A stretch of DNA of 55,003 bases from Methanobacteriota archaeon (GCA_002712285.1 PATC01000024.1:1-55003), one strand, 5' to 3'; positions 5,745-23,504 are shown, counted from the stretch's first letter. Program-made: numbers and translations. Notes: a model not told the origin generated them from the letters alone.

Positions 5745-5748
5745 ACTC

Positions 5749-8700
5749 ATGTCAGGCAAGGCATGTTTACTCGTAGCCTTGTTTTTGACGGCAAGTTGGA
5801 TTGGTGTATTCCAACCGGAAGAACTCGATTTTGAGGAAAATAGAGAGCAAATCTTTGTTCAGTCTCGTGCGGTAACGACTTGGTCTGGAACAGTCCAACT
5901 TACATCCTCCTATACGGTTTCATCAGGAGATGAACTTAGGATACAGCCTGGGACTACCATCGAAATGTCATTAGGTGCACGTCTGTATGTAGATGGCCGT
6001 TTGAGTGTCCTAGGTAATGATGTGTCCCCGGTGCTAATTACCTCTGGTATTTCCACACAATCTCACGAAGGTTTGCAGTTCAATACAACATCGAATGGTT
6101 TCGGTTCAGTAGTTCGTAATCTTACAATTCAGAATGCCGACTATGGGGTCACAATTTACGGTAGTAATCCCTTACTCGATAATTTGACAATTCTAGATCC
6201 GGATTACGTAGGTGTTGATTTATTCAGTTCTGCAACACCTACGATTACTAATCTGCACATTGATGAGGCTGGACAAGATCTTCATGGCTTTGCCAATACT
6301 TGGCGATATGGTCTAGGTTTATCCATTGGAGCTGGTTCTGCTCCAGTTGTTACAGGATTACAAGTTAATGATGCGATTACTCGTGGAATCAATGTCTGGG
6401 GTGGTTCTGGTGGACTTATTCGAGATACACATATTCACAATGTGAGTTTGGCAACACAGTCGATTTCTGCAGGTGTATGGGTTGAAGACTCTATCCTCTT
6501 GTTCCAGAATCTCACAGTGAATCGTTCAGATCATGGTGTATATGTACGTCATATTACTGAAACCGGGGTGACACGGCCGACTTTCCGTGATACTGTCGTT
6601 GAGAATTCAATGTATGTCGGCGTTTTCGTCGAACGTTACAACCATTCTCTGTATGCGAATATACCCATGAATGCCCAGTTTGAGGGTCTCACGGTTCGTG
6701 GTACTGGTGGTCCGAATGCCAAAGCTTCTGGCCTTTGTACGGCTGCTTTGAACATCAACACATCTGGTGTCTACATTGAGAATGCCCTCATTGAGAATAA
6801 CGATTGTATTGGCTTCAGGGGCTATATGATGGGCTCATCTACTACTGTCAGAAATTTGACCGTCAACGGTTCAGGTAAGGTTGGCGCATCCGATCCTAAT
6901 CTTGGCTCAGGTATCTATTTGCGTTCAGTAAATTGGGCACCAACTTTCGATGACATATCTGTATCTGATGCAGCTACAAACGGAATACATCTACGTAAGT
7001 CGAGTCTACGTGGAACAAACTGGTCTGTGGATAACAGTAGTCGTGTTGGACTCTACATCCGTGAGTCACATCCTGAAGTGGAGGGTATCACTGTAGAAGA
7101 TAACGGCTTAAATGGCGTCCATATTTTCGATGCAAACAACGTTCTATTGGAAAATGTGATTTCGGCAAGAAACGGAGGTTCTGCAAGTGGTGTATCTGAT
7201 GGAGTCGGTTATTTCTACGAAGAATCGAACACGTTGACTGCTCCGACTAAAGATGTCACCTGCCGTACCTGTACCAGTATTGACGATGCTCAGGGAGGCG
7301 TGATGCTCAGTTCAAGTATTGATGTAGTCCTTGAGAATCATACAATCGTAACTCCGGCTGGTATTGGACCTGCTTTACGTGTCGACAATAGTGGTCTAAC
7401 TCGAACGGGTGTTGTGACGATTCGCGGCATGTCGATCCATCAAGAAGAATCGTCTACACATGCTGTATCAATTGGTTCAAGCGATGCAAGCATCAATGGA
7501 TTGAATCTTCAAGGCAATCATAGCGGTATGTTCTGGACTGGAACTGGAACATCTGGCTTAGCGTCCTCTCTTTCTAGCTCTACCCTAGGTGGACCGAACT
7601 GTCTCAGTTTGACGGCTCACAGTGCCCTTTCCATTACTTCGAGCGATATCTCCGCATGCACGGGGGCGATGACCATCCAGTCTAGTATTGTCTCCTTCGA
7701 TGGTATGTTGGATTCTAGTCACCTTTCTCTAAATCAGCCAGGGGTGAGTACTACCAGCCATGTCGAGTGGATATCATCAGGTGCCCCCCCGGCTCTCAAC
7801 CTAGGTGGAACGGCACAGTTCGATCGCATGTGGCGAGTCCATACATGGGCAGTGAACCAGAATGGGTTCGGGTTGCCAAACGCAGAGGTCAACTTATCCT
7901 TCGATCACACCGAATCGGATGTCACTGAGACATTGCCTTACGCAGGCAACATGGTTCTAGGTCCCTTTGTAGGGATGAGAACTGATGCACTTGGTAGCAC
8001 TTCTGTCAACGAGTTCTGGACAGGTTGCCTCTATGCTTCAGTGCGTAACGACACTGGACCGACAGCGCTCAATAATGATCTCAATGTTATCTGTGAGATT
8101 GTCCTCCCAGATCAAGCTCCACTAATCATCTGGTCAACGCCTGTGGACGAGGAGGTCTTCCCATCCGGTGGAGAAGTAGTGTTCAATGCTACAGAATCTT
8201 GGGATTTAGAATCCCAAGCTTTGACTTTCACTTGGATGAGCAACATCGATGGGGATCTCCACCAAGCTTGCTCTTCATCAAGTGGCGATAATGGTTCGAA
8301 TCTCATCGTAAACGATCAGATACCAGCCTGTTTCTCAGATGGAAACCATGACATTACTCTAGAGGTGTGCGATACTTCGTTTAATTGTGCAAATGAAACG
8401 CGGAGTATCGAACTGACGAATCTTCCTCCGTCTATTTCTATGGCTCTTGATCCTCCTGCGGATGCTACGAACCGTATACTACTAGCAAGAACTGAGGTAT
8501 TACATCTCAATGCCTCTGCCTCCATTGATCCGGAAGGTATGCCATTTACGACTAGTTTAGATGTCTCGTTCTCTAACTGGGCTGACGATCCTGGAGATTG
8601 CATGGCTCCTTCATGTCCATTGGAGTACAATGTTTCCTTCGAGGATTCTCCATCAGATATTTTCGATCTCGTTTTTGTCATCGGTGATGGACTGAATCCT

Positions 8701-10569
8701 TCCATAACATATTCTTGGACCGTCGAGATATACAACGAATTGCCCCATCCTGCCATCCAAGTTTCTCGTGATAGTGATTTATCCTCATCTCTCGTGACTC
8801 TCGATGCCCTAGGAACCACAGATCCTGAAGGAGATTCGATAGTCTATAGATTCCATTCCTCAATCGATGGTGATCTCTTAACGTCCCGTTCAGCACATCT
8901 ACTCACTGAGACTTCTGCCCCGCCTGATGGTATGTGGGTAGGCCATCTTTCTCCTGGCGTACACACAATTACTCTCGGCGTAGGCGATTCCTATGCTGGG
9001 CACATAGGGCAGGAGGCCTTGTTGAATATCCTACTCACGGTTAACAACACCCCCTCGGTCGCAATCATCGATTCTCCATTGACTGGAATGACTACGGATT
9101 CTGCAGAATTGATTCGCTTCAATGGTAGCGGTTCTGGCGACTGGGATATGACCTGTCCTGACGAATCATTCGTTGTCCTTGTCTGTAATGGATACGAGGG
9201 CCAAGGTGGCGATTTAGTTAGTGTTCTCTGGACTTCTAACTTACTTGCTGAGCCTCTGGGTAGCGATTGGATTCTCGATACGCGATTACCTGCAGGGATT
9301 CATGATGTCACATTGTCTATTGATGATGGTTCAGGCTCCCCAGTAAGAGCCATGGTAAGAATCGAAGTGAGTGCTAGCGCACCCATTATGATTCTCGATT
9401 CACCCATTCCTGGAATCAGTGTATCTAGTGATGGACCGGTACTCTTTGATTTCCGTAACTCCTTCGATCCAGATGGCGATAACTTCACTGTGACAATTAT
9501 GAGCGATTTGCACGCTGATCCGATTCTTGAGAACGGTACAATCGATTATTGGTACAACGATTATCTTGTGTCTGGCGACCATACCTTGACCTTCACCTTG
9601 GAAGACGAAACTGGCGCAGTCCGAATCTATCAACAATCCCTTCGTGTAGATCCATCAGCTCCAGTTGCAGTCATCGGAAATATTACCGAAGGAACTTACG
9701 CTCCACCGGGTGCGTCACTTGAATTCATAGGCGCAGAATCATACGATTATGATGATGACATTATTCGTTACGAGTGGAGAATCGATGCCCCTATGGGAAC
9801 GGTTGTTTCAACACAACCGAATCTAACATATGAGCCGTTGCCAGGGATTCACCTAATTCATCTCACAGTAATTGATTCACTTGGGAGTATCAGCACCGAT
9901 ATGGTCAACATCACTGCTGGCTCGAGTTCACCGATGTTGGGTTCACTTTCTTATGACCCGAAGATTATCCGTGCTGATGAAACTACAGATGTCATCATCA
10001 CTGTCGTACTTGATGATCCAGATCGAACAACAGGGCAGGTTCAGGCTCGGATTGCTAAGGATGGTCTTGGCTCTACAGTCCAACTTAATGACAATGGAAC
10101 TGGAGTAGATGAGGTAGCCGGTGATGGTATCTGGTCTGGTTCAGTATTGTGGACTCCGAACGGTGGAGGCTACGCGCGTCTTGAGGCATGGGCGACTGAT
10201 GGAGACACCGTGTCTCCTACAGTTGCGATTACAATCAATGTAGAGGGGGCGCTTGATTCTGGTGGTCTTCTTGAGGAACTTAGTGGCGATTTAACCACCA
10301 TAATTGGAGGTGTGATAATTGTAGTAATTCTTCTTGGTGGATTAATCATGTTCAATCGTAGACGTGCACTTGCTCGTGATCTTGAAATGATTGAGTCATG
10401 GGGAGGTACTCCTGCAAGTGCTAAGGCTGGATGGGATGCTACAACTGAGGTTAGTGCAGCAGATACGGCAATGTCTACAATGAATGCAGATGTAATGGAC
10501 ACATCTGATTCAGTAGAGGACGCAGCCAGTAAGATGCGTGGTAGTGATCTCGACTGGGACAATGTTTGA
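5749..10569 (+). CDS. Large surface protein: parallel beta-helix, PKD/Ig-like repeats and C-terminal TM anchor
   Basis: Signal peptide; beta-helix repeats; PKD-like motifs (FNATESWDLE, LDALGTTDPEGD, ESYDYDDDIIRYEW); LNDNGTGVDEVAGDGIWSG motif; TM followed by RRR. Start is 5749 or 5725. Confidence 0.8.
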   Translation: MSGKACLLVALFLTASWIGVFQPEELDFEENREQIFVQSRAVTTWSGTVQLTSSYTVSSGDELRIQPGTTIEMSLGARLYVDGRLSVLGNDVSPVLITSGISTQSHEGLQFNTTSNGFGSVVRNLTIQNADYGVTIYGSNPLLDNLTILDPDYVGVDLFSSATPTITNLHIDEAGQDLHGFANTWRYGLGLSIGAGSAPVVTGLQVNDAITRGINVWGGSGGLIRDTHIHNVSLATQSISAGVWVEDSILLFQNLTVNRSDHGVYVRHITETGVTRPTFRDTVVENSMYVGVFVERYNHSLYANIPMNAQFEGLTVRGTGGPNAKASGLCTAALNINTSGVYIENALIENNDCIGFRGYMMGSSTTVRNLTVNGSGKVGASDPNLGSGIYLRSVNWAPTFDDISVSDAATNGIHLRKSSLRGTNWSVDNSSRVGLYIRESHPEVEGITVEDNGLNGVHIFDANNVLLENVISARNGGSASGVSDGVGYFYEESNTLTAPTKDVTCRTCTSIDDAQGGVMLSSSIDVVLENHTIVTPAGIGPALRVDNSGLTRTGVVTIRGMSIHQEESSTHAVSIGSSDASINGLNLQGNHSGMFWTGTGTSGLASSLSSSTLGGPNCLSLTAHSALSITSSDISACTGAMTIQSSIVSFDGMLDSSHLSLNQPGVSTTSHVEWISSGAPPALNLGGTAQFDRMWRVHTWAVNQNGFGLPNAEVNLSFDHTESDVTETLPYAGNMVLGPFVGMRTDALGSTSVNEFWTGCLYASVRNDTGPTALNNDLNVICEIVLPDQAPLIIWSTPVDEEVFPSGGEVVFNATESWDLESQALTFTWMSNIDGDLHQACSSSSGDNGSNLIVNDQIPACFSDGNHDITLEVCDTSFNCANETRSIELTNLPPSISMALDPPADATNRILLARTEVLHLNASASIDPEGMPFTTSLDVSFSNWADDPGDCMAPSCPLEYNVSFEDSPSDIFDLVFVIGDGLNPSITYSWTVEIYNELPHPAIQVSRDSDLSSSLVTLDALGTTDPEGDSIVYRFHSSIDGDLLTSRSAHLLTETSAPPDGMWVGHLSPGVHTITLGVGDSYAGHIGQEALLNILLTVNNTPSVAIIDSPLTGMTTDSAELIRFNGSGSGDWDMTCPDESFVVLVCNGYEGQGGDLVSVLWTSNLLAEPLGSDWILDTRLPAGIHDVTLSIDDGSGSPVRAMVRIEVSASAPIMILDSPIPGISVSSDGPVLFDFRNSFDPDGDNFTVTIMSDLHADPILENGTIDYWYNDYLVSGDHTLTFTLEDETGAVRIYQQSLRVDPSAPVAVIGNITEGTYAPPGASLEFIGAESYDYDDDIIRYEWRIDAPMGTVVSTQPNLTYEPLPGIHLIHLTVIDSLGSISTDMVNITAGSSSPMLGSLSYDPKIIRADETTDVIITVVLDDPDRTTGQVQARIAKDGLGSTVQLNDNGTGVDEVAGDGIWSGSVLWTPNGGGYARLEAWATDGDTVSPTVAITINVEGALDSGGLLEELSGDLTTIIGGVIIVVILLGGLIMFNRRRALARDLEMIESWGGTPASAKAGWDATTEVSAADTAMSTMNADVMDTSDSVEDAASKMRGSDLDWDNV

Positions 10570-11298
10570 TTATGGTCCCCATTCGGTCTTCGTTCGATTA
10601 ATTCCGAATCTCTTAGCGAAAAGGAAACGGAAATTGAGCCAACCATCACCCCACGTGTTAATTTCAGCATCACCGACACGGACACGGTATGGAACGCTTA
10701 CTTCGATCGCCTTCTTTTTTCCGAAAACACGTCGAGCATTAATTTTCATTTCTTCCGACAGAGGCATCCCATCGTGTGTTGGTCGCATCTTGTCATCCTC
10801 CATGATATTCTTCCAGAAAACCCACATTCCACTTTGTGAATCATGGATACCATACCAGAACAGCATTCTAGCTGTGACCGATAATCCCCAGTTACCAAAT
10901 CCATGTAACCCTGACATAGCGCCCTTTTCAGCACGACGTAGTCGATCACATGTGATGAATTTGAGATCCTCTTCAACGAGTTTTCGAACCAATCCGGGGA
11001 CTTCTTCTCCAGGATAGGTACAGTCTGCATCCATTGTGACAATAATTTCGCCAGGAGCCATTGCGAAACCGGTTCTGTAAGCCCGGCCGTAACCTCTCCG
11101 TTCCTCAAGATATACTGTAGCTCCCTCACTTTCTGCAAGTTCACGAGTTCGGTCTGTTGAATTCCCATCGATGACCAGGAAGTCTAGTTTCTCGCACCAC
11201 CCATCGTTGGGTACGGAACGAATCGTGTCGATAATTGCAGCTTCTTCGTTTCGGGTCGGAATGACGACCGTGACATGAACAGGTAGCGTTTCACCCAT
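10570..11298 (-). CDS. Glycosyltransferase family 2 (dolichol-phosphate glycosyltransferase-like)
   Basis: VVIPTRNEE, VIDGNSTDRT, GYGRA, DxD motif (MDADCTY), DSQSG, YRVRVG. Confidence 0.92.
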   Translation of the reverse strand: MGETLPVHVTVVIPTRNEEAAIIDTIRSVPNDGWCEKLDFLVIDGNSTDRTRELAESEGATVYLEERRGYGRAYRTGFAMAPGEIIVTMDADCTYPGEEVPGLVRKLVEEDLKFITCDRLRRAEKGAMSGLHGFGNWGLSVTARMLFWYGIHDSQSGMWVFWKNIMEDDKMRPTHDGMPLSEEMKINARRVFGKKKAIEVSVPYRVRVGDAEINTWGDGWLNFRFLFAKRFGINRTKTEWGP

Positions 11299-11407
11299 GA
11301 ATTGCGGGTTCAGTGTTTTGATTTGAATGCATTCCATTCCTAAATCACTTCAAACTCTTTGGTTAATCTTCCACACAACTGATTTACACGGGGACATTTG
11401 TGAAGTC

Positions 11408-13843
11408 ATGATGGGGCACCTCATTGTGGACCGTTCCGCCGGCGTCGGCCGGAGTAAGGCGCCCCTCCGTCATTCCATTTTGTCACGTTTTTCAGCGTCC
11501 GCATTACTTCTCTGTCTTCTGGTTTCTTTACTTCCAACGGCAATTGCAGATGATGATTGGAGTACTGCAAATGTTCTCACTGATGGGAGCAGTTCTTCGG
11601 ACGCGGTAGATCATGACGGAGATTCAACCGATTGGTGGACGATTGACATTTTGAATGGCGATCGCCTTGAGATTGATGTAACCTCACCAACAGGAGATTA
11701 TGGCTTCGATTTGTTCGGATGTTTTGGGACCGATCATTGGGAGGGTAAGGTGCAAATCTGGGATGCCCAAGATGTCAATGGAGTAATGGAACGTGATCAG
11801 AAGCATTTTGATCAGGACTTCTCTAGCAGTGGTTCTGCAAGTATATCTGCTCTAGTGAACCCTTCCTCTTCTGACTGGGGGTCCCATACTGGCCCCACAA
11901 CATGGTACATCATGGTGAAGTCACTTTCTACATGTGCTCGTGATGATTTTGATTATACAATCAGTCCCTCTGTTGATACCACGAATCGAGATACTGATGA
12001 GGACGGTTTTGTAAATTCAGAGGATGATTGTGATGATGTTCAAGGAACATCAACTGAGGACCGTAAGGGATGCCCCGATGGTGATTCTGATGGATGGTCC
12101 GATACGGGAGATCGTTTCCCGACTGATGGTACACAGTGGAGCGATGGTGACGGCGATGGATATGGCGACAATCCGGCTCCTGCAACTATGCCCGATCATT
12201 GCCCACAGTACTTTGGGAACTCAGATCAGGATAGATACGGCTGTCGAGATTCCGATGCAGATGGTTGGTCTGATCCGGACCCAACCGCAATTTTCTCGAC
12301 CGAGTCATGGAATGTTTCTGATGGTGCGGATGCTTTCGAATTTGATCCGACTCAATGGTCGGACTATGACCTCGATGGATATGGTGATAATTGGGATAAT
12401 ATCGACTGGAATGCTAGTAGAGCAGAGGCCGGTGTTGGAGTATTCTATGAAGGCGCTACTGAGCCTGATGCTTGTCCACTGAGGTGGGGTAGCTCTATGG
12501 AAGACCGTATTGGCTGTCCTGATTCAGATGGAGATGGTTGGTCAGATTCTGATACATCATGGGGAGCAGAGAATGGCTCAGATGCTTTCCCTAATGATGC
12601 CACTCAGTGGGCTGACCGTGATTTGGATGGTTACGGCGACAATTTAGAAGGAAATTCTCCAGATGCTTTCCCAGATAATCCATCTCAATGGGACGACAGT
12701 GATGGCGATGGTTGGGGTGATAACCAAGGTCTTGGAGCAACACAGGTGGATTATTTCCCATCTGAACCTAGCCAATGGGCAGATATGGATTCAGATGGAT
12801 ATGGTGACAATTCCAGTGGTCTAAATCCAGATGCTTGTATGGATCGTGCTGGGACTTCTACAATGGATCGTTATGGTTGTCCTGATGCCGATGGCGATGG
12901 ATACAGTAATCCTGATGAGGATTGGCCTGCTCATCCTAGTGGATTTGCGGATGCCTTCAATGATCAAGCTAGTCAATGGGCCGACACAGATGGCGATGGA
13001 TACGGAGACAATCAATCTGAATCTGCTTGGAGACCCGACGCTTGCAAAGTAACTGTAGGGACATCAACAATTGATCGATGGGGTTGTCCGGATTCAGATG
13101 GCGATGGAGCCAGCGATCCTCAGGTTGATTCTGGCTGGCTTTCTCATCCATCTGGTCTTGCTGATGCTTTCCCAGACGACCACACTCAGTGGCGAGATCT
13201 CGATGGTGATGGTTACGGTGACGAACCAACTGGTACTAATCCAGATCGATGCAGAGAGACACCGGGTACGAGTCAAGATGACCGGTATGGCTGTCCTGAT
13301 ACCGATGGCGATGGTTGGAGCGATTTAGGAGATCGCTTCCCGAATGATGTGACACAGTGGGAAGATGCAGATGGTGATACTTACGGTGACAATCCTGACG
13401 GCAATATGCCCGATTCTTGTCCAAACGCTCCACTATCTGCTGGAGTCAGTCTGCTAGATCGACTTGGTTGCCCAGACACAGATAATGACGGCTACAGTGA
13501 TCCCGATGACGAATGGGGGGCAAGTCCGAATGGAACGGCGGATGCTTTCCCTAGAATCCGTGTTCAGTGGGCAGATGCGGATGGTGATGGATTTGGGGAT
13601 AATGCAATCGGTTCACTCCGTGATAATTGTCCGAATACACCGGGTTCTTCCACCATCGATTTACAGGGTTGTCCTGATGGTGATGGCGACGGGTACTCTG
13701 ATGAGTTTGGCTTCACAAACGCCCAACTAATGCTGATGGCTTCCAATCCAACAGCTTCCTTGTTCACGTATCTTATTCCCTTCACAATGTTCGCTCTGAC
13801 ATTATTTGTGATGATCATTGGTCGTAGAAGAGGTGATCCATGA
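11408..13843 (+). CDS. Secreted/membrane-anchored thrombospondin type-3 (Ca-binding) repeat protein
   Basis: Signal-like hydrophobic stretch; many DAFP..xQWxDxDGDGYGDN and DRxGCPDxDGDG repeats; C-terminal TM followed by RRR. Start is uncertain. Confidence 0.85.
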   Translation: MMGHLIVDRSAGVGRSKAPLRHSILSRFSASALLLCLLVSLLPTAIADDDWSTANVLTDGSSSSDAVDHDGDSTDWWTIDILNGDRLEIDVTSPTGDYGFDLFGCFGTDHWEGKVQIWDAQDVNGVMERDQKHFDQDFSSSGSASISALVNPSSSDWGSHTGPTTWYIMVKSLSTCARDDFDYTISPSVDTTNRDTDEDGFVNSEDDCDDVQGTSTEDRKGCPDGDSDGWSDTGDRFPTDGTQWSDGDGDGYGDNPAPATMPDHCPQYFGNSDQDRYGCRDSDADGWSDPDPTAIFSTESWNVSDGADAFEFDPTQWSDYDLDGYGDNWDNIDWNASRAEAGVGVFYEGATEPDACPLRWGSSMEDRIGCPDSDGDGWSDSDTSWGAENGSDAFPNDATQWADRDLDGYGDNLEGNSPDAFPDNPSQWDDSDGDGWGDNQGLGATQVDYFPSEPSQWADMDSDGYGDNSSGLNPDACMDRAGTSTMDRYGCPDADGDGYSNPDEDWPAHPSGFADAFNDQASQWADTDGDGYGDNQSESAWRPDACKVTVGTSTIDRWGCPDSDGDGASDPQVDSGWLSHPSGLADAFPDDHTQWRDLDGDGYGDEPTGTNPDRCRETPGTSQDDRYGCPDTDGDGWSDLGDRFPNDVTQWEDADGDTYGDNPDGNMPDSCPNAPLSAGVSLLDRLGCPDTDNDGYSDPDDEWGASPNGTADAFPRIRVQWADADGDGFGDNAIGSLRDNCPNTPGSSTIDLQGCPDGDGDGYSDEFGFTNAQLMLMASNPTASLFTYLIPFTMFALTLFVMIIGRRRGDP

Positions 13844-15174
13844 TGCGCCGTGTTCTCATTGCTCTGATTCTTTCAGTTCTTTTACTACCATTATCAGCAA
13901 GCACAGCAATGGCTGATTCCAGTGTAATGCTCAGTGAGAGCCGTGTAGATCCAATGGATTTAGACAACGATGGAGAGGCCGATATGCTTCGTGTAATTTA
14001 CGCTGTTAACGCATCCGCTGCATCAAGTGCAGGCATTCAGGTCGTTGCCGAAACTGGACGTCTTGTACTACCATTTTGGAATAATCTAACTCTTGCTCCG
14101 GGAGATACTCAGTTTGGTTCAATCGATATTCAAGCATGGGAGATGGCGAGTTATACGCTACATCTTCGAGTGTGGGATCATGATATGGAAGTCATTGTTT
14201 ACGAGGAACTTCTCGGAACTTACGATTTGACAGCCGCACTGAATCCACCAGCCCTAGACCTTCAGTTCCAGGGAAGATCCGAGGTATTCACGGGTGAAGC
14301 ATGTTCCATCGTACGAACATTCTCTGATGAAGTAGGAGAGCATTATGATGAGATGGGAGTCGTTTCCTTGACAGGGGTCCCATGGCAGGTGTTGAATGAT
14401 ACTGCTCCAATCGATTGCAGCGGATGGCCAGCAGGAGATTATACGGTATCCATGCAGTATACTAACGGCCTTGGTTTCGGGGCCTCAACATCTCTTGATG
14501 TAACTATTCTGAATCATCCAGCGCCCGCTTTTGAGCTAATTGTAACTGGGGACAATGAGAGAATGGGTACTGGTTGTGCTGTTGAAGCCGTGATTGATGA
14601 GAATTCCACATCCATGCTCACTTATGCTTGGACTGTAACTGATCCGAGGGGCCAGCAGACTGAGACCTCAAATATCAACGACATTGATTGTGGTCTTTGG
14701 GTGCCAGGCGTGCATAAGATTCGTGTAATTGCGACAAATGCACAGATGCAGGCGACTGAAATGGGTGTTAATTTAGTACGTCTCCCTCCAATTGATTCCA
14801 ATGATCCTACGCTCGGGAACATAACAGATGATGGGACCTGGCCGGATGCTTCCAGTGGAGATGATTACGAGCCGGTTCCACTGTTCATGAATGTGGAAGC
14901 TTCGGCTGGGGCTATTGCTGGCGGAGGTGTTCTGATTGGAATCTTGCTTGGTGTGTTTGTTGGTCTTGTAATGCGCCGAAGCCCTCGCGATTCAATGAGT
15001 TCCCTTGAGGAGGGTATTCTTGCACCTCCTCCTGAGATTGATTCAGCGGATGAACCCACAGATGAGTTGCCGACTTATACCGACCCACAAGGAATTACCT
15101 GGCGTCAACATCCGGATGGTCGTATGGATTGGTGGGATGGGACTCAGGCGGCTTGGGTTCCGTTTGAAGGCTGA
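13840..15174 (+). CDS. Type-I membrane protein with Ig-like ectodomain and cytoplasmic WW-like module
   Basis: ATGA overlap with the upstream stop; signal peptide; Gly-rich TM; C-terminal YTDPQGITWRQHPDGRMDWWDG. Confidence 0.75.
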   Translation: MMRRVLIALILSVLLLPLSASTAMADSSVMLSESRVDPMDLDNDGEADMLRVIYAVNASAASSAGIQVVAETGRLVLPFWNNLTLAPGDTQFGSIDIQAWEMASYTLHLRVWDHDMEVIVYEELLGTYDLTAALNPPALDLQFQGRSEVFTGEACSIVRTFSDEVGEHYDEMGVVSLTGVPWQVLNDTAPIDCSGWPAGDYTVSMQYTNGLGFGASTSLDVTILNHPAPAFELIVTGDNERMGTGCAVEAVIDENSTSMLTYAWTVTDPRGQQTETSNINDIDCGLWVPGVHKIRVIATNAQMQATEMGVNLVRLPPIDSNDPTLGNITDDGTWPDASSGDDYEPVPLFMNVEASAGAIAGGGVLIGILLGVFVGLVMRRSPRDSMSSLEEGILAPPPEIDSADEPTDELPTYTDPQGITWRQHPDGRMDWWDGTQAAWVPFEG

Positions 15175-15764
15175 TTCATACCTACAAACACTAAGATGTT
15201 TGATTCACTCTTAATCGTGAAACTTACCTCTTTTGTGATATTCGAAAGACCTCTCGTACCCGGCTCAAGATCCCCATTAATTTCCCATTCTAATCCCGAG
15301 GTCTGAACTTTGGTGGGGGCGTTTGTGAAAATGGATACCTCGGTTCCAACTGGTGCAACTATATCCATTGGATTTTTTTGATTAACACGGAAAGCGAGCA
15401 TGTCAGAATGAATCATCTGTATCTGAAGTGCGGAATCAGCAGTCATCACGGCGGCGATATTGGCTATCTCCATATCTGGACGTCCTCCACGCATCCCGAT
15501 GATTGTGATATTGGTCCAACCTCGATCTAAGCAGAAACTCAATGCCTTCTGCAGATCATTTTTCTCTTGTGAAGGAAGTTCAATGAATTCCGCATTTGGA
15601 TGACGCATTCGATTGACTGAATCAAGATCTCCAATAATCAAACTGCACTCTATACCGAAATCAAGAGCATTGTCAGCCCCAGAATCCACGCCGATTGAAA
15701 GAGAATGTGGAGGTACATGGATTTCGCCCCAATCCTTCCCGGGTAAACAGAGGAGTGTTGTCAT
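15144..15764 (-). CDS. thiN: Thiamine pyrophosphokinase
   Basis: GVDSGA, IIGDLDSV, QEKNDLQKAL, GGRPD, GLEW..GLSN. Likely start is MTTLL at 15764. Confidence 0.88.
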   Translation of the reverse strand: MTTLLCLPGKDWGEIHVPPHSLSIGVDSGADNALDFGIECSLIIGDLDSVNRMRHPNAEFIELPSQEKNDLQKALSFCLDRGWTNITIIGMRGGRPDMEIANIAAVMTADSALQIQMIHSDMLAFRVNQKNPMDIVAPVGTEVSIFTNAPTKVQTSGLEWEINGDLEPGTRGLSNITKEVSFTIKSESNILVFVGMNQPSNGTQAA

Positions 15765-15876
15765 GTATCGAACCAGAGGTCCTACGCCTTGATTTATCCG
15801 ATGAAGAGGCGTCAAGGCTGAACCCTTTAGGACATGGATGGGAGTAGACGCACTGTGGCCGTGCGGCCATACGGCG

Positions 15877-18800
15877 GTGAAAGTGGTGAAGGGGCGTCTT
15901 CTCGTTCTTCTGATGTTACTGTCTGTGCTTTCCCCAATCGCCCAGCCACCTTCTGCTCTAGAGGATGAATCATCGCATAGTGCAACAATCCAAGCTCCAC
16001 TCCCGACGAATGAGTGGGGCGAGGAATTAGCAGGTGAGGATATCACTCATCTCGGAGTTGATTGGACAGTTCAATCAACACGGTCTCTCAGAGAGTTCGA
16101 TGTTCTCCATTTGCTCGATAGGGGAGATACTACCCATTCGGATGATTATTCGGACCTTGACATGGTTCTCGATCGCTTTGGTGGCGTGCATGCATGTGTA
16201 CACAACGGAACCTCGGGTTCGTTGGAGTATTTCCATCTGAATTCGACGGGTATTGTGGTTCGAACCATCGTTGATGATCATGCGACGAATGTTGTAGGAA
16301 AATCCTGTGACATCGAGTTAGATGCTAGAGAGCGTGCTAGGATTGCTTACCTAGATGTCACGACTAACGAGTTGAAGTTTGCAATAGATACGCCACATCA
16401 CTATGTGGATTTTCAGGACTGGCATGTGAGGACAGTGACGGGATTTGGAACTGTTAGCGCTCCTATTGACCTTGTTATTCTCTCTGGAGATGAGGATATT
16501 ACCGGAGGTGCTGGAACGGATTTTGTTCTGTGGATGGAATCTGGTACAAATCACCTACATGCGTCCTACTATACCTCGACTTATTGGGAGCATGAGTCCG
16601 TAATCGAATCTGCAATCGAGGGCTTTTCCGCACGTCAAGAAGGAAATTCAATTCGTATATTGCATGAGGTCTCAGGTTTGATTCGTACTGCTGAATGGCC
16701 TTCGATGAATATGACGAATATCGATGCAGGTGCCTACATAGGGGCGCCTCTAGATGATGCTGGCCAAGGCGACGATATCCAAACGGTGTATGCTGGAGAG
16801 AATGAGACTTTAATCCAATTCGCTCGAAGTTTGAGTGGTCGACGCGAGGGTCGAATCACAATCGATCCTGTTAGCACTATTTCGGATCCAGACGAAAATG
16901 ATACATCTCCAAGATTGAATCAAGGTGATTTCAATTGTGATGGGGTTACTGACATTGTCGTACTTACAGACGATGAGGTCGGCATCTATCATGGACGAAC
17001 GAGTGGTTTGAACTCATTACCAGATTCCACGATTACCCTAAATCTAGGCGATCACTATGCTGATGTTGCTGATATTAACAAAGATGGTTGCGATGATTTG
17101 TTACTTGGAAGTTCGGGAGAGGGTAATGCTGAGATTCATCTCGGATCAATTAGTAGCCTGCAGTTATTTTGGAATCATACTGGAAATGAAGGCTCTGGAT
17201 TTGGAGCGAAGATAGTCCCTATCGGTGACGTGCAGAATGACGGATATGAGGATTGGGCGGTCCTTGCAAGTCAAGAATCAGGTTCAGATTCATCCGTTGG
17301 GCGTATCTACATCTTTCATGGAGGTTCATCACCTCCAACTTCTTCTTCACTTACTTTGACCGGCAGTGGAACGAATCTACAGTATGGTTGGGCAATTGAA
17401 CCCCTTGGCGACATTGATGATGACGGTTTCGATGACATGGTAGTATCCTCAGCTGGAGGGCTAACCGACCTTACTGGATACGGTCGTGTTGATTTGCATA
17501 CTGGTGGGGCGACTGGGCATTCAACATCGCCTGAATCTACATGGACACGAACTCTCCAAGGTACTTTCCTAGGATATTCTATGGGAATCATAGGCGATGT
17601 AAACGGGGATGGCTTCGATGATCTTGGAATCGGTGAGCCTTATGTTGATTCAGCAGGCCCAAGTTCAGTTGGAGCATTACATGTCTTGTTTGGCAGTGCA
17701 TCCGGTTTTGGTAGCAATTACAACCAGACGATTTCTGGCCCATCAGCAGGCTCTCGTTTAGGCGTTCAAATGGCTGCAGCAGGGGATGTAGATCGTGATG
17801 GTTATGATGACGTTTGGGCAATTCGTCCAGGTGTTGGTAACGATGGCGATCTCGCTCTTTTGTGGGGCTCTTCAACTGGCCTTCTTTCTACTCCTCGACT
17901 GTATGAAATGGGCGATCTTTCTGATGTCGTTCGTGTATCTGATTTGGATGATGACGCTCAAGAGGAATGGGTCTTCGTGGGAGAAGGAGATCTTCCTATC
18001 CATGAGCATCTCGATCTTGAGATAGCAAGTATCACAGGTCCTTTTGGACAATCTCAAACTTTCACTTCACTTGATTTGGTGATTGATGGAAGTGAACGTT
18101 CAGTAATTGGTGTTCATACAGATTCTGGTTTCGTTATCTTAGATCGTCCCGATGAATTATTCACATCCACTGGCCAATGGTCCCAGCGCCTCATTTTTGA
18201 TTCTGAGGATGCGGCGATTGACGTTACTGAATCAGGCCGTATTGTAGTTGTGTATGAGTGTAATCAGGGGACACTTTGCTTGGGTCGTGATGTGGGGCAT
18301 ATTGCATCCATAGCGACGATCGAATCGATTGGTGATGCTGGTTCTTCGCCTCAGGCAATCGTTAGTGAAAATGGTGAATTGAGGACTAGTTACATGTTAG
18401 GTAGTTCGCTTATTCGATTCGCAAATGCCACGAATTCGGGCTTCGAAATATCTTCTGGACCTTCACTTGGCTCGTTGAATGGAACTCCGATTGTCGACCT
18501 TGAGCGCAATCTAATGTTTTGGCGAGATGATTCTACATTGATGGCGGCTCAATGGAATTCAAGTGGGTGGGATTCAATCGCTCTCAGTCCTGTAGGGGAA
18601 GCGAACTACTCCCATTTCGATGTAGCGGGAATTTCCTCGTCAAATGAAACCCTCGTAACTTACGTTGCATCGGATGGACTCCGAACATTGAGATTTGACG
18701 CTGATGCTTGGACGATATCGAATGAGACAGTTCACAATCTCTCAGAAATGGATGATTACCTACACTTGCGTACCTTCTCGACGGATTATGGTGAGTCTCT

Positions 18801-21800
18801 GCTTGCTGTGAATGTTAGTGGTTTTGGGATAATAATCGATTTCTCAAACAACTCGACGGAATTCGAGGAACGATTCAACTGGACATTTGTAGGGTCTAGC
18901 CATAATGGGTCCTCGATTACTTTGGATGGAACTAACTTGTCCTCACAGTATTTCCATTTGAGTTACGGTGACCCTACCATTAACTCCCTGATATGTCCAA
19001 TTTCTCTGTCAAATATGTTGGAATGTTCAATTTCTTCTCTGTCATCTTATGTGGAATCAGTAGCGTTGCAAGGAAATTCTTCTCTGATGGAGTTCGGAAT
19101 CCGTTCAGATGGCTCTCTTGAGACTCCATATGGACTCCTAAGTGGATTAGATTTCGATCCATCTGCAGGCCTTTCTGTGATAGAACGTAATGGTGATCGA
19201 TCGGGGATAGTGTTGTTTGGAAAGACAATTGGAACAATGGACTCAATCGCCGTCCATTTGGATATTGATACAGATCGCGATTTCATTCCAGATATCATTG
19301 ATGATTTACCCGCACAAGGTGGACAATGGTCCGATTACGATGGAGATGGTTACGGGGACAATTCAATTGGTCCTGGAATGGATGACTGCATGACCGATGT
19401 GGGTAGCAGTTTGTATGGTGATACAGGATGTGGAGATGTAGACAACGATCGTTGGTCGAACTTCAACGACGATTGTTCCACAGGTGGCCATTCTTACTAC
19501 GACAGAGTTGGTTGCAGCGATGCCGATGGAGATGGCTGGTCTAACAATGGAGGAGATTATTCCAATGGTGACATCGCACCCACAAATTGGTTTCAAGCGA
19601 GGGATGCAGATGGCGATGGTATTGGAGATAACCACGGTCCTGATTGCTGTGGTTTTGACTTAGCTGATGAATTCCCTGATGATCCAAAACAATGGGTCGA
19701 TGCAGATGGTGATGGTGTGGGTGACAATTCCTCCGATCCAGATGGTGACCAATGTCCAGGGCTGTTAGGTCTGAGTATACACGATCGAGCTGGTTGTGTA
19801 GATAGCGATGGTGACGGATATAGTGACCCTACTGAGGCGACAAGCACGGCAAATGATGATGCTTGGACTATTGATGATGGTGCGGATATGTGGCCTTGGA
19901 GCCCAACAGATACCTCACCCGAGAACACCTGTGGAACCTTGTGCCATCAGCAGTGGGCTGACTCAGATGGGGATGGCTTCGGTGACAACAGTTCAATTGG
20001 TGCTTTCCTTAGAGATGCCTTCCCAACAGATGGATGGCAATGGTCCGACACAGACAACGATGGATATGGTGACAATTGGGATGATCCCGCCCTCAATGCG
20101 ACACGGGCCGGAGGAGTTGGCCAATGGGTTCCTCAAGCAAATCTTAGCGATGATTGTCCAACAGTGACTGGAAATTCTTCCTTGGACCGTTGGGGTTGTT
20201 TGGATACAGATGGGGATGGTCATTCCAATCTCTATTCATTCGATATTGATGAGAACACTGGACTACGTGTAAACGAGCGTGGGGATGCACTGCCAGATAA
20301 TCCGGCACAGTGGCGTGACAAGGATGGAGATGGTTTCGGGGATTTCCCTCAAGAGCAGGGCGGTGACCAATGTGTGGGTGTTCCGGGTGTCTTGAATGGT
20401 ATTCCAGGTGATGGTTGTCCAGCTCCAATTGATGATGCGGATGTAGATGGTGTAGCCGACGAATCCGACCTCTGTCCGAGCACTGCTTCGGGAGCATCTG
20501 TTGATCAGAATGGGTGTTCAGATGCGCAGCGTGATGATGATAACGACGGAATCCTAAATCCTGTTGATCTTTGTCCAGGAACCACTTCCGATACTTCGGT
20601 TGATTCAGACGGTTGTAGTGATATTCAGAAGAATGCTGATTCGGATGGTGATGGAGTACGCGATCTAGACGATCTTTGTGCTGAGACCAGTTTATCAGCG
20701 AACGATGTAGATTCTAATGGGTGCGCTCCTTCACAGCGTGACACAGATGGAGACGGCATCACAGATGATCTTGATGATTGTCCAAACACAACTCTTGGGG
20801 CAGCAGTAGACGATGTTGGTTGTGTTCTTGCTGGTGTTGATAGTGATGGTGACGGCATCGATGACATTGAGGATGCGTTCCCAACCGAAGTAACACAGTG
20901 GACTGATGTTGATGGCGATGGTTTCGGTGACAATGCGGAAGGTGTAGTTCCAGATGATTGCCCATCTGTTTCTGGAGAATCCGATCAAGACCGGAACGGT
21001 TGCCCGGACGGTGATGGAGACGGTTGGTCTGATCCCGACTCATCTAATTCTGTACCGCCGATTGGCACGGCTGATGCGTTCCCTAACGATTCTACACAGT
21101 GGAGGGATCGTGATAGTGATGGATATGGCGATGAGGCCGATGGTAGTAATCCAGACCAGTGTCCAGACTTACCAGGAGTAGAAGACGGAAATTCTGGAAA
21201 CAATATCGATGGAGGTGAAGGTGGAGCAGGATGTCCTTACGTTGACAAGACCGATACTGATGGAGACGGTGTCTATGATACTGTGGATATCTGCCCAGAT
21301 AGTCCATCTGGGGTTTACGTTGACCAATCTAACGGATGCACCAATGAACAACTCGAAGAAACTGGAACTGAAGGTTCAGAAGGTGTAGATCTGATGATGA
21401 TTGCAGCTGCTGGAGGCGGTCTTCTCGGTCTTCTTCTCATCATTGTTCTCGTTCTGAGGCTCTTTACTGGTGGCGATTACGAAGATGATGATGACTGGTA
21501 TGGTGATGATGATGATGATGATGAGCCACGAGCTTTCAGTTTTGGTTCAAAATCCACTCGCGTTGAGAAGCAATCAGAACCGCCTCGTCGTGGAACATCA
21601 AGTCCACGTCCATCTGCATCACCTCCGTCACGGAGTAACCCGCCTAGCCGTTCTATTGGGCCGCCAAAGAGACAATCTGGTCCACCATCCCGTAGCCCCG
21701 GTCCACCGAAGAGGAAGCCAGCACCAGCATCTAAGACTCCTCGTGTTGCCCGAACTCCAGTCAAGACCAATCTCGATGAAATCCCTAAGGTTGCAACCCC

Positions 21801-22146
21801 TCGCATTGACCCTCGAAAAGTGACTTCATCAGAAGCAGCCCCAGTCCGACGTGTGCGTCGTACTGCGGGTGTGGTATCTTCGATTTCAGAAGATAATCCT
21901 TCTCCGACGACCACTAAGAAAGTCGCAAAGAAGGCAGTTCGAACTGTGAAGGAAACTTCAGATCCTTCAGTGTCCTTTGACTCCTTATTCGATGATCCGA
22001 AGAGTGAACAGGTGCTTGCTTCCATCGAGATGGCGCGTTCGATGGTTAGTGAAGGAAAAGAAGATCGGGACATTCTTCGACAGCTCCAGCGAGCTGGTGG
22101 TTGGAGCGCAGAACAGTCACGAGCGATCCTCGATACGTCCCGATGA
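15877..22146 (+). CDS. Giant surface protein with FG-GAP (integrin-alpha-like) and thrombospondin-3 repeats, TM and long cytoplasmic tail
   Basis: FG-GAP repeats (FGAKIVPIGDVQNDGYED, LGYSMGIIGDVNGDGFDDLGIGEP); TSP3 repeats from about 19260; TM near 21390-21470. Start lies between 15838 and 15886. Confidence 0.85.
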   Translation: MKVVKGRLLVLLMLLSVLSPIAQPPSALEDESSHSATIQAPLPTNEWGEELAGEDITHLGVDWTVQSTRSLREFDVLHLLDRGDTTHSDDYSDLDMVLDRFGGVHACVHNGTSGSLEYFHLNSTGIVVRTIVDDHATNVVGKSCDIELDARERARIAYLDVTTNELKFAIDTPHHYVDFQDWHVRTVTGFGTVSAPIDLVILSGDEDITGGAGTDFVLWMESGTNHLHASYYTSTYWEHESVIESAIEGFSARQEGNSIRILHEVSGLIRTAEWPSMNMTNIDAGAYIGAPLDDAGQGDDIQTVYAGENETLIQFARSLSGRREGRITIDPVSTISDPDENDTSPRLNQGDFNCDGVTDIVVLTDDEVGIYHGRTSGLNSLPDSTITLNLGDHYADVADINKDGCDDLLLGSSGEGNAEIHLGSISSLQLFWNHTGNEGSGFGAKIVPIGDVQNDGYEDWAVLASQESGSDSSVGRIYIFHGGSSPPTSSSLTLTGSGTNLQYGWAIEPLGDIDDDGFDDMVVSSAGGLTDLTGYGRVDLHTGGATGHSTSPESTWTRTLQGTFLGYSMGIIGDVNGDGFDDLGIGEPYVDSAGPSSVGALHVLFGSASGFGSNYNQTISGPSAGSRLGVQMAAAGDVDRDGYDDVWAIRPGVGNDGDLALLWGSSTGLLSTPRLYEMGDLSDVVRVSDLDDDAQEEWVFVGEGDLPIHEHLDLEIASITGPFGQSQTFTSLDLVIDGSERSVIGVHTDSGFVILDRPDELFTSTGQWSQRLIFDSEDAAIDVTESGRIVVVYECNQGTLCLGRDVGHIASIATIESIGDAGSSPQAIVSENGELRTSYMLGSSLIRFANATNSGFEISSGPSLGSLNGTPIVDLERNLMFWRDDSTLMAAQWNSSGWDSIALSPVGEANYSHFDVAGISSSNETLVTYVASDGLRTLRFDADAWTISNETVHNLSEMDDYLHLRTFSTDYGESLLAVNVSGFGIIIDFSNNSTEFEERFNWTFVGSSHNGSSITLDGTNLSSQYFHLSYGDPTINSLICPISLSNMLECSISSLSSYVESVALQGNSSLMEFGIRSDGSLETPYGLLSGLDFDPSAGLSVIERNGDRSGIVLFGKTIGTMDSIAVHLDIDTDRDFIPDIIDDLPAQGGQWSDYDGDGYGDNSIGPGMDDCMTDVGSSLYGDTGCGDVDNDRWSNFNDDCSTGGHSYYDRVGCSDADGDGWSNNGGDYSNGDIAPTNWFQARDADGDGIGDNHGPDCCGFDLADEFPDDPKQWVDADGDGVGDNSSDPDGDQCPGLLGLSIHDRAGCVDSDGDGYSDPTEATSTANDDAWTIDDGADMWPWSPTDTSPENTCGTLCHQQWADSDGDGFGDNSSIGAFLRDAFPTDGWQWSDTDNDGYGDNWDDPALNATRAGGVGQWVPQANLSDDCPTVTGNSSLDRWGCLDTDGDGHSNLYSFDIDENTGLRVNERGDALPDNPAQWRDKDGDGFGDFPQEQGGDQCVGVPGVLNGIPGDGCPAPIDDADVDGVADESDLCPSTASGASVDQNGCSDAQRDDDNDGILNPVDLCPGTTSDTSVDSDGCSDIQKNADSDGDGVRDLDDLCAETSLSANDVDSNGCAPSQRDTDGDGITDDLDDCPNTTLGAAVDDVGCVLAGVDSDGDGIDDIEDAFPTEVTQWTDVDGDGFGDNAEGVVPDDCPSVSGESDQDRNGCPDGDGDGWSDPDSSNSVPPIGTADAFPNDSTQWRDRDSDGYGDEADGSNPDQCPDLPGVEDGNSGNNIDGGEGGAGCPYVDKTDTDGDGVYDTVDICPDSPSGVYVDQSNGCTNEQLEETGTEGSEGVDLMMIAAAGGGLLGLLLIIVLVLRLFTGGDYEDDDDWYGDDDDDDEPRAFSFGSKSTRVEKQSEPPRRGTSSPRPSASPPSRSNPPSRSIGPPKRQSGPPSRSPGPPKRKPAPASKTPRVARTPVKTNLDEIPKVATPRIDPRKVTSSEAAPVRRVRRTAGVVSSISEDNPSPTTTKKVAKKAVRTVKETSDPSVSFDSLFDDPKSEQVLASIEMARSMVSEGKEDRDILRQLQRAGGWSAEQSRAILDTSR

Positions 22147-22176
22147 GATTCAAATCATGAATGACTAGCATCAGAT

Positions 22177-22190
22177 TGATTCATGAATCA
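22177..22190. promoter_or_regulatory. Perfect 14-bp palindrome TGATTCATGAATCA in an intergenic region
   Basis: Self-reverse-complementary sequence 33 nt upstream of ATG 22224. Confidence 0.45.
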
Positions 22191-22223
22191 CCTGCACCGA
22201 CCGGATGAAAGAGGTGGACGGAG

Positions 22224-23504
22224 ATGACCGAATCTGAAGTCGAAGGCGCCTCGCTTCCGACAGACGGCATTGATGTTGATGAAACATCAGCGTATTTTGG
22301 CGTCACTCAGACGTCGGATCTGATTATCCGATTGAACGAGACAGATCGCTTGAATGGTCTTGGGGAGTTCCTGACACTAACCAGTGATCTCCTGCTCACA
22401 GATCAGTTTGATTTTGATGTTGTTTCGGAACGTTTGGGTTGTGAATCAGGTGAGATTTACTATCTACTTTCGGGACCATTTGGGATTTTCACTATGACTG
22501 ATCCACTACGTCTCTATCTTGGTCAACAGGATTCTGGAGGAAACCAAGGTACCGTTCCCGATATTCCCTCCGAGGAAATCGCTGCTTTGGATACCTTCAA
22601 CGATCCATTTAGGATTCTCAAATTACTCGCAGTTGGCCATACAGTTGGAGGTATCAAGGAACTCGATCTTTACATTGCAGCATTTGAGGAGTTGATTGCC
22701 GACCCGTCTACAAATAGAGTCCGTCTTATTGCCCTCAAGGCACAATTAGATCAGACATTGGAGAAGGCGAAGACGACCTTAGAGGTCTCTGGCCTATCAG
22801 TACTTAGTATGACACAGGTGGCTTCCCAGATTATCCGTGCACCTGAAGGCGTCTCTCCTCCGAAACCTGCGGAAGTCGTAACAGAATCCAATACACCAGT
22901 TCCAGTCGAAGTTGTTTCTTCTGATACGTCTGAACCAACTAGTTCCGTTCCTGAACCTATCTCTGAGATCCAGAATATATCAGGTGCAGAAGACGCTCTT
23001 GCTGCTGCTTTCTCCGGAGAAAATCCACCGTCCCCTTCTTCCATTCCGTCGGTTGAGACAGGGCCTGCTGAAGACGCTCTTGCGTCTGCCTTTTCAGTTC
23101 CTTCACCCTCTCCTGTAGTTGTATCTGAATCACCACAAGTAGCTCAACCTCCAGTTGAATCGGTCAAACTCGAAGACGTATCTTCAGAATCAGTTCCTCC
23201 GACACCGCCGATTCCAGCGAAAGCACCGACTGTTCTTGCTCCATCCCGTGCTCCAATTGGAAGCCGAGCACCTCCTTCACAGCCCACATTCGGACAGACG
23301 GCTCAACCCACTTTCGGGGCTTTACCATCTAGTGGACAAACCCCAGTTAGTACATCAGGTCCAGTGGGCTCAGGAAAAGTGCGCAATAGAGGTATTTCTG
23401 GAGTTCATGCTACTATACAGACTGGTGTTTTCTGTGCATCATGTGGTATTGGTGTCGAGCATCATTGGCGATATTGCCCTCTTTGCTCGAATCGACTAAT
23501 GTGA
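22224..23504 (+). CDS. Cytoplasmic protein with helical N-domain, Pro/Ser-rich disordered region and C-terminal zinc ribbon
   Basis: CASCG...YCPLC at the C-terminus; no signal peptide; SD-like GAGGTGG upstream. Confidence 0.75.
   Translation: MTESEVEGASLPTDGIDVDETSAYFGVTQTSDLIIRLNETDRLNGLGEFLTLTSDLLLTDQFDFDVVSERLGCESGEIYYLLSGPFGIFTMTDPLRLYLGQQDSGGNQGTVPDIPSEEIAALDTFNDPFRILKLLAVGHTVGGIKELDLYIAAFEELIADPSTNRVRLIALKAQLDQTLEKAKTTLEVSGLSVLSMTQVASQIIRAPEGVSPPKPAEVVTESNTPVPVEVVSSDTSEPTSSVPEPISEIQNISGAEDALAAAFSGENPPSPSSIPSVETGPAEDALASAFSVPSPSPVVVSESPQVAQPPVESVKLEDVSSESVPPTPPIPAKAPTVLAPSRAPIGSRAPPSQPTFGQTAQPTFGALPSSGQTPVSTSGPVGSGKVRNRGISGVHATIQTGVFCASCGIGVEHHWRYCPLCSNRLM

Follow-up and report, generated by a model that had tools for sequence, protein, structure and literature searches.

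A conserved, unannotated cell-surface locus of the Poseidoniales encoding membrane-anchored proteins with conserved cytoplasmic tails

Organization of the locus

The stretch analyzed here (the window) comprises 55,003 nucleotides from a Methanobacteriota archaeon (GCA_002712285.1, PATC01000024.1:1-55003), a Thalassarchaeaceae genome of the order Poseidoniales, or Marine Group II (MGII). It contains a block of genes in the order UvrC-STAND-A-GT2-B-C-TPK-D-E-F, in which A, B, C and D denote type-I surface proteins and E a soluble protein encoded directly after D. The block is syntenic across the Poseidoniales, in both large families. The locus is real, conserved across the order and unannotated, "hypothetical protein" being the public name of C, E and their relatives in all cases.

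All four surface proteins are encoded on the plus strand. Protein A (5725-10569, 1614 aa) combines a beta-helix with PKD/Big domains, B (11327-13843) carries TSP3-like repeats, C (13840-15174, 444 aa) has three Ig-like domains, and D (15838-22146, about 2100 aa) joins an FG-GAP propeller region to TSP3-like repeats. They are followed on the same strand by E (22224-23504, 426 aa). Two genes on the minus strand are interspersed among them. One is a GT2 glycosyltransferase resembling AglJ and dolichyl-phosphate hexose transferases (10570-11337). The other is a thiamin pyrophosphokinase (TPK; 15144-16046; PF04263, E = 4e-16), a gene unrelated to the surface proteins that sits between C and D. A previous reading of the same DNA by a model (the sequence-only reading) had listed four co-oriented membrane-anchored proteins, a GT2 and a Pro-rich zinc-ribbon protein, and open reading frames (ORFs) for all of these are present. 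The list was corrected in two respects: TPK had been missed, and GT2 lies on the minus strand. The stop codon of B overlaps the start codon of C (ATGA at 13840-13843), and B and C are translationally coupled. Orthologue alignments suggest that the true start of B lies about 27 codons downstream. The longest ORFs of TPK and D overlap, so that one of the two true starts must be shorter.

In a hydrophobicity scan each of A to D showed one N-terminal signal-like segment and one C-terminal transmembrane (TM) helix followed by basic residues, in agreement with the proposed membrane anchoring, and a TM segment was absent from E. The cytoplasmic tails measure 71 aa in A, 7 aa in B, 67 aa in C and 229 aa in D; the substantial tails that had been proposed therefore exist in A, C and D, but not in B. 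The ectodomains are large, acidic and rich in N-x-S/T sequons (29 in A, 6 in B, 5 in C and 28 in D, 68 in total), with zero in any tail; for comparison, a count of 0-3 is found in most of the cytoplasmic proteins encoded by the window. With GT2 adjacent and, in relatives, a GT4 glycosyltransferase as well, this makes the extracellular glycosylation postulated previously plausible.

Ectodomains of the surface proteins

Pfam detected Beta_helix (E = 1.2e-19) and PKD (E = 8.7e-10) in A. Motif listing found eight Cys-containing D-x-D-G-D-G (TSP3-like) units in B, arranged in a repeat unit of 60-90 aa whose second loop reads QWxDxDGDGYGDN. The best match of B among PDB sequences is the TSP3-like OmpA-family protein 5wtl (E = 0.005), with which its GCPDxDGDGxSD repeats align; unlike the bacterial TSP3/OmpA-family proteins, B has no OmpA domain and a longer repeat unit. 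No Pfam model matched B even at E<=10, including the TSP3 models PF02412 and PF18884, so that its resemblance to TSP3 proteins is shown by the repeat motif and the likeness to 5wtl only.

The AlphaFold2 (AF2) model of C, built from an alignment of 19 sequences, has a predicted local distance difference test score (pLDDT) of 80.4 and contains three beta-sandwich domains, a TM helix (residues 352-379), a disordered linker and a compact C-terminal unit (410-444). Foldseek matched it to tandem Ig/FN3 arrays (SiiE, FN3 and insulin-receptor FnIII), which supports the Ig-like assignment. In D, residues 1-1121 matched FG-GAP (E = 1.8e-12, 47.3 bits, four stretches) and FG-GAP_3 (E = 8e-13, five stretches), both above cut-off, and the TM helix covers residues 1855-1873. 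The C-terminal half of D matched TSP_3 at E = 0.0065, with 16.6 bits against a cut-off of 25. Of the FG-GAP plus TSP3 architecture proposed for D, the first part is thus confirmed by family models, while the TSP3 repeats were seen by motif and fall below the TSP_3 cut-off. The expected Ca-binding-type D-x-D-G-D-G repeats are present, and the ectodomains of A to D are of the adhesion type.

Cytoplasmic tails

Conserved islands were found in the tails of A, C and D across orthologues. The tail of A has a juxtamembrane motif, RRRxLxxDLxxIESWG, and an acidic end. In D the tail (21457-22143, + strand) contains an acidic patch (DDDWYGDDDDDD), GPPSR/PPKR repeats and a basic RVRRT motif, and its C-terminal part is a conserved domain about 57 aa long (21973-22143). 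This domain ends in ...LRQLQxxGWxxxQSRxIL; across the aligned orthologues the pattern is ...ERxILxQLQxxGWxxxQSRxI. The PPxR repeats named in the sequence-only reading are present as PPSR and PPKR; the end domain named there is also present and conserved, but its description as helical derives only from the sequence pattern. Mean identity to the window protein outside the genus is 37.5% for the ectodomain of A, 51.9% for its juxtamembrane segment and 17.0% for the rest of its tail. The corresponding values in C are 35.8% (ectodomain), 9.3% (linker) and 49.7% (the C-terminal module described below), and in D 32.7% (ectodomain), 50.4% (acidic patch), 21.4% (Pro-rich run) and 36.8% (end domain). 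Judged by these alignments, the tail islands of A, C and D are more conserved than the ectodomains.

Profile searches over the order covered the window's own genome and 100 others (49 of family f3, 2 of f2 and 49 of f1). The end domain of D was found in 63/101 genomes (48/49 in f3, 0/2 in f2 and 14/49 in f1) and occurs once in the window's own genome. Its profile found nothing significant among PDB sequences (best E = 0.13). In two genomes of genus g13 (G037 and G048) it belongs to proteins some 1463 aa long, as well as to shorter ORFs; the domain can thus travel between proteins. The poly-Asp portion of the juxtamembrane acidic patch is encoded by about 14 consecutive GAT units (21484-21524). 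This run differs in length among close relatives and could therefore vary by slippage.

The Trp-rich module of protein C

Protein C ends in a Trp-rich beta module (15046-15171, + strand) of about 35 aa with the pattern LPTYTDPxGxxWRQHPDGxxDWWDGxxxxWxPF. One D, one G and three W residues are invariant in the alignment. In the AF2 model of C it forms strands at residues 412-414, 420-423, 429-433 and 438-441, with pLDDT of 86-89. The sequence-only reading had described it as WW-like, and it does resemble WW and DUF2510 domains in being small, Trp-rich and about 35 aa long, with the pattern LP...W...G-R-x-x-W-W...W-x-P; its three to four short predicted strands may add to this likeness. It differs from them in its position at the extreme C-terminus of membrane proteins, in the absence of a WW match and in its Trp spacing. 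WW domains have two conserved Trp 20-22 residues apart and a Pro three positions after the second. In C, W421 and W439 are 18 positions apart, in the paralogue type the spacing is 16, and the W-x-P of C is not conserved across module members, among which WVPF, WIRY and WQRW occur. The WW model PF00397 did not match the 65-aa tail at E<=5 or 16 module sequences at E<=10, within the limit that HMMER filters discard many matches above E of about 0.1. The sole Pfam family touched was DUF2510 (PF10708), which two of the 16 members matched below its 24-bit cut-off, with E = 0.019 at best. PF10708 found nothing in the window's own genome and nothing in 14 control genomes either, hence this search is uninformative. 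No Pfam or NCBIfam model matched the module, and no PDB sequence match was significant: designed beta-trefoils came first (E = 0.16), with zero WW domains at E<=10. The Protein Atlas gave no usable match for the C tail. The Trp-rich stretch is thus present and conserved, but it fails the sequence tests for WW membership and, since no model matches it, "WW-like" is a description of shape and pattern.

A module profile built from 16 sequences, searched against 1.84 billion proteins at E<=1e-3, gave 192 representatives, of which 150 were listed. The module ends at most 8 aa from the C-terminus in 138 of these 150, and a TM segment precedes it in all 46 of the 138 that are at least 250 aa long. 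A poorly conserved linker of 12-133 aa (median 32) separates the TM segment from the module. The ectodomains of module-bearing proteins include fasciclin (x8), CARDB, TSP3, SBBP and PKD/FG-GAP. One relative (P0209) matched GVDTG_CTERM at E = 0.0092, below cut-off, and a module-bearing relative matched the NCBIfam cell-cell cohesion protein MtsD weakly (E = 7.7e-5), far below cut-off. Within the order the module was found in 84/101 genomes, with 1-6 copies each. In a sample of the phylum it was present in 55/63 Poseidoniales genomes and in 0/237 others; among the genomes sampled the module is limited to the Poseidoniales. Inside the family, the C-type module subfamily occurs in exactly the same genera as E.

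Five copies are present in the window's own genome: C, a TSP3 protein of 1729 aa and three polytopic paralogues. The latter have about 510 aa, are 44-46% identical and belong to no Pfam family; a cytoplasmic stretch in them looks TerB-like, and the module forms their C-terminus. One lies in the window (52942-54489, + strand, module at 54361-54486) and the others are at L003 1288-2826 (-) and L004 5894-7423 (+). The 1729-aa protein belongs to a second cluster of giant surface proteins on contig C27 (L005 4000-19535; 1631, 1729 and 1302 aa), whose TSP3-like repeats are paralogous to those of B and D; it is type-I and ends in the module.

This distribution raises the question of a tag. C-terminal tags are known from PGF-CTERM, PEP-CTERM and the T9SS CTD, and the module could serve sorting, trafficking or turnover by a shared machine (for example one for membrane insertion or secretion, for loading vesicles, for proteolysis or for polar targeting), with no coupling of C to D or E. 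Its extreme C-terminal position, its occurrence on many unrelated ectodomains and on polytopic proteins, its one to six copies per genome across the order and its presence in genera without D and E all favor such a tag. Known tags, however, are extracytoplasmic, or else they lie inside the TM helix or directly adjoin it, whereas the module is folded and lies in the cytoplasm beyond a linker. In addition, no recurrent neighbor, including any sortase-like candidate, was found beside the five module genes of the window's own genome, and the agreement of the C-type subfamily with the presence of E at genus level is exact. We consider a tag without any coupling rather unlikely. Most likely, the module is a common cytoplasmic docking or sorting handle rather than a ligand site reserved for D or E. 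The copy on C would then be one of an order-specific set that several membrane proteins of each genome have in common.

Protein E

The sequence-only reading had proposed a cytoplasmic Pro-rich zinc-ribbon protein, and E fits this description: a TM segment is lacking, the linker is Pro-rich, and the C-terminus has a CxxC...CxxC motif whose four Cys are invariant in 34 sequences. Pfam zinc-ribbon models matched it weakly (E = 0.012-0.06). Its structural model, also from 34 sequences, has a pLDDT of 65 and shows a confident all-helical N-domain (about residues 29-195), a disordered linker and a zinc ribbon with pLDDT of about 80. The homologues have in common the N-domain, a low-complexity Pro-rich linker, an APxRAP-type motif and the zinc ribbon. 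Mean identity to the window protein outside the genus is 43.0% in the N-domain, 17.9% in the linker and 44.2% in the zinc ribbon. E was found in 64/101 genomes of the order: 48/49 in f3, 2/2 in f2 and 13/49 in f1.

Of 117 clusters of E homologues, 36 are annotated with EF-hand Pfam families, and most orthologues from other genera have an EF-hand pair. EF-hand loops were detected in 5/5 orthologues from f3 and in 1/13 orthologue ORFs from f1 loci, some of which are cut by contig ends. E of the window has no EF-hand Pfam match and no EF-loop pattern and cannot be counted as an EF-hand protein; loops were not seen in its genus. Foldseek found no match for the fold of E at E<=1e-3, and no usable match for the N-domain was obtained from the Protein Atlas. 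Residues 39-89 showed a weak VIA-align likeness to helix-turn-helix (HTH) units, which was rejected, its Z of 4-4.5 being below the meaningful level for helical models.

Conservation and joint loss of the locus

The linkage expected by the sequence-only reading was borne out in relatives. The order A-GT2-B-C-TPK-D-E is kept in 12/14 loci of the family, covering six genera. The two exceptions are G006 and G021, where a different contig carries both D and E together; the reason in G021 is simply that the contig of C ends soon after that gene. In f3, the other large family, B-C-TPK-D-E-F is present in 5/5 genomes, with A and GT2 also beside B in 3/5. E always follows D directly. The overlap of B and C and the adjacency of D and E are maintained at 30-45% protein identity. 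TPK keeps its place order-wide, also in genomes without B-C and D-E. The complete f3 genome G062 is collinear with the window only over 1219-28484 (UvrC to amidohydrolase); of the genes from 28683 onward, nothing lies within 40-60 kb of the block in G062, except for one out-of-order thiolase gene.

Four streamlined genera of the Thalassarchaeaceae lack both B-C and D-E but keep the TPK gene between them, as well as A, GT2 and F. These are g6, g8, g13 and g10, each examined in one genome, and in 4/4 the gene order is UvrC-STAND-A-GT2-(GT4)-TPK-F, so that at least two deletions are needed to explain it. C was found in 25/61 and E in 23/61 genomes of the family, in an identical set of 6/13 genera. 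B-C and D-E behave as one unit, inherited and lost together. Transcription was assessed with one metatranscriptome run, which held 19% of the sampled words; its contigs cover 26/30 bins and bridge the B/C junction, and the 4/30 uncovered bins carry no meaning for contigs.

Such synteny could be no more than that of a slowly rearranging segment, in which unrelated genes stand side by side with no joint function. UvrC, TPK, F and the amidohydrolase do lie in the conserved block, the entire window is collinear within the family, A, GT2 and GT4 persist where B-E are missing, and in f2 D only is absent. However, collinearity with the other family stops exactly at the ends of the block, the B/C overlap and D-E adjacency survive at low identity, two non-adjacent segments were lost together around a kept gene, and the genera with C are those with E. 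We regard mere frozen gene order as very unlikely.

We give an even chance to a different reading, that of an ancient order-wide cell-surface locus in which B, C and D form a surface assembly whose tails are read inside the cell, with E as the candidate inner partner. The assembly would be one of adhesion or of the envelope, and E, as the best candidate for a partner of the B-C-D tails, would connect surface engagement or Ca2+ to the cytoplasm. The position of conserved tails beside a soluble protein suggests, from sequence, such a link between the cell surface and the interior. Surface adhesion is plausible; signaling is conjectural.

Several observations weigh against this reading. Collinearity of the whole 55-kb window within the family (locus L079) leaves family-level synteny with little weight, so that only the comparison at order level is informative, and the conserved block includes clearly unrelated genes (UvrC and TPK). 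The parts are not obligately together: one f2 genome reads A-GT2-B-C-TPK-E with D absent, and in 2/4 genomes of g13 the end domain of D sits on another protein in the absence of C or E. In the tree of protein A, g6, g8 and g10 form one clade and g13 stands apart with support of 0.599; the losses thus occurred in one or two lineages, and adjacent genes can go in few events. The GT2 tree, tried as a species tree, splits the window's own genus, is incongruent with genus labels and was not used. The module also occurs in genera without E (g4, g6, g11 and g12, in weak single matches), so that E cannot be its only partner. A search for the fold of E with VIA-align gave a best Z of 5.6, the noise level for helical models. 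Fused forms of E, which are a weak criterion since a D-E fusion would exceed the size range, were absent among proteins of 747-2130 aa. Finally, an RNA contig at 23400-23975 runs across both 3' ends of the convergent genes E and F. Either their transcripts overlap at the 3' end or the library contains DNA; carry-over of DNA is possible and the RNA evidence is thin.

Protein A, glycosyltransferases and neighboring genes

GT2 matched PF00535 (E = 2.6e-24) and is a general GT2 enzyme. The NCBIfam AglJ model TIGR04182 matched at E = 2.2e-31 with 109 bits against a cut-off of 325, so that membership in this equivalog is not supported. GT2 is 62-97% identical across the order. GT4 adjoins it in every other lineage examined except locus L082 (g13); in the window's own genome GT4 is relocated to contig C32 (11934-13160). 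The sequence-only reading had placed protein A and glycosylation in one complex with the other surface proteins, but A, GT2 and GT4 all persist in genomes that lost B-E, and are for this reason considered independent of them. A, together with the STAND NTPase, and both glycosyltransferases would act separately from B-E.

The STAND-type NTPase (2998-5151, + strand; Pfam AAA_16 E = 1.3e-6, nSTAND6 E = 4.6e-6; weak N-terminal HTH, HTH_10, and TPR) adjoins A upstream in loci of all three families and in streamlined genera without B-E. It is a conserved neighbor that may regulate A. Between the two genes is a Ser/Thr-rich ORF of 115 aa (5186-5533), with tblastn matches at the same place order-wide (36-90% identity), which is either a small real gene or a conserved region read another way.

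Protein F (23505-24503, - strand, 332 aa), convergent with E, shows a weak match to Peptidase_M29 (E = 0.0044) and has no clear family; it is a conserved neighbor and is kept where B-E are lost. Next to it is a Beta_propel protein of 844 aa (24570-27104; PF09826 E = 1.4e-113) with an N-terminal hydrophobic segment ending in LAGC. Its gene is at this place within the family and absent there in G062. Relatives have further genes inserted in the block (L045 7156-9044; L038 8234-9430): between C and TPK, some genera have an AI-2E-family transporter, and G029 also an Lnb_N/DUF4105 gene, and between A and GT2 the g7 genomes have an AtuA-family gene.

A convertase had also been proposed to mature the surface proteins. 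The gene at 41033-44602 (- strand) does encode an S8 subtilase with a P-domain (Peptidase_S8 E = 2.8e-40, P_proprotein E = 2.4e-23), as well as TSP3_bac and MopE repeats. This role is not supported, because in G062 the surroundings of the block (40-60 kb) do not contain the gene, which is thus unlinked outside the family, and because the ectodomains of A to D have no R-x-K/R-R (furin-type) site; one dibasic pair was found in each of A, B and D.

The sugar-related genes bear on another interpretation, in which A to D form a structural glycoprotein coat similar to a surface layer (S-layer) or a glycocalyx, with tails for anchoring, lattice spacing or assembly and with no signaling. The tail islands, such as the juxtamembrane amphipathic helix and the Trp-rich interfacial modules, would then lie on the inner leaflet, and E would be an assembly or quality-control factor, or unrelated. 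C-terminal TM anchors, a heavy sequon load and nearby AglJ-like GT2 and GT4 genes are typical of archaeal surface glycoproteins. Consistent with a coat are also the order-wide, single-copy locus, the composition of the Trp/Asp-rich module and the IESWG helix, which could suit a membrane interface, and the lack of a recognized adaptor fold in E. S-layer glycoproteins share with A to D the signal peptide, a sequon-rich acidic ectodomain, the single C-terminal TM helix and an AglJ-like GT2 nearby. In contrast to an S-layer, there are four different proteins here and not one lattice protein, three of them have long conserved tails, and B-E are dispensable in several genera. Genera with at least 90% complete genomes that lack B-E keep A, hence B-D are no essential coat, while A could be one. 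Furthermore, the module lies beyond a poorly conserved linker and is a compact beta unit, domain-like rather than a membrane-proximal anchor, and the tail of D, with its acidic patch, basic Pro-rich run and end domain, exceeds the needs of an anchor. No sorting-domain model (PGF-CTERM, archaeosortase, NCBIfam) was matched by A, B, C, the C tail or the D tail at E<=1. A mere coat seems doubtful to us.

Comparison with known systems and significance

The assembly with tails read by an inner partner, as preferred here, recalls the integrins. Integrin alpha has an FG-GAP beta-propeller, one TM helix and a short cytoplasmic tail read by adaptors. D likewise has FG-GAP repeats, Ca-type acidic loops, type-I topology and a conserved tail, and the soluble E is encoded adjacent to it. 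The differences are considerable: there is no detectable homology beyond FG-GAP, the tail of D has 229 aa and other motifs, Pfam found no integrin-beta-like domain in A, B or C, and a fold like that of talin or kindlin was not found in E. Surface proteins of prokaryotes commonly contain FG-GAP repeats. The term "eukaryote-like" applied in the sequence-only reading is therefore an analogy, and homology is not supported.

In its strongest form, the locus would encode a transmembrane adhesion-signaling device, the first of its kind in archaea. B-C and the integrin-alpha-like D would bind particles or other cells by means of Ca-loaded ectodomains, their conserved tails (the module of C, the acidic patch and end domain of D) would recruit E as an EF-hand/zinc-ribbon protein, and Ca2+ or contact would be signaled inward. 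The module would be a new docking domain wiring surface and polytopic proteins to one inner partner, and complete loss of the device would have taken place in the streamlined, free-living lineages. We consider this full device unlikely.

Among the planktonic archaea of the surface oceans MGII are the most abundant; to our knowledge, no member is in culture. "Thrombospondin" and Ca-dependent adhesion-domain genes are reported from MGII genomes in passages of PMC6461757 (Rinke et al. 2019) and PMC4511931 (Orsi et al. 2015), where particle or cell adhesion is inferred from domain content; these genes come from the same organisms and have the same kinds of ectodomain as those described here. In the passages of MGII papers covered by our literature search, papers whose supplementary tables may list the genes, we found no description of the locus, of type-I topology with conserved tails, of the module or of E.

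Until now, domain counts have been the only argument for the presumed particle attachment of MGII. The locus offers a defined order-wide gene set and a clear contrast of presence and absence that sets genera with larger genomes apart from streamlined ones. Three of its elements are not covered by Pfam or NCBIfam: the C-terminal module, the end domain of the D tail and the N-domain of E. If E does read the tails, this would be a rare case in archaea of receptor-like coupling from the surface to the cytoplasm via single-pass proteins.

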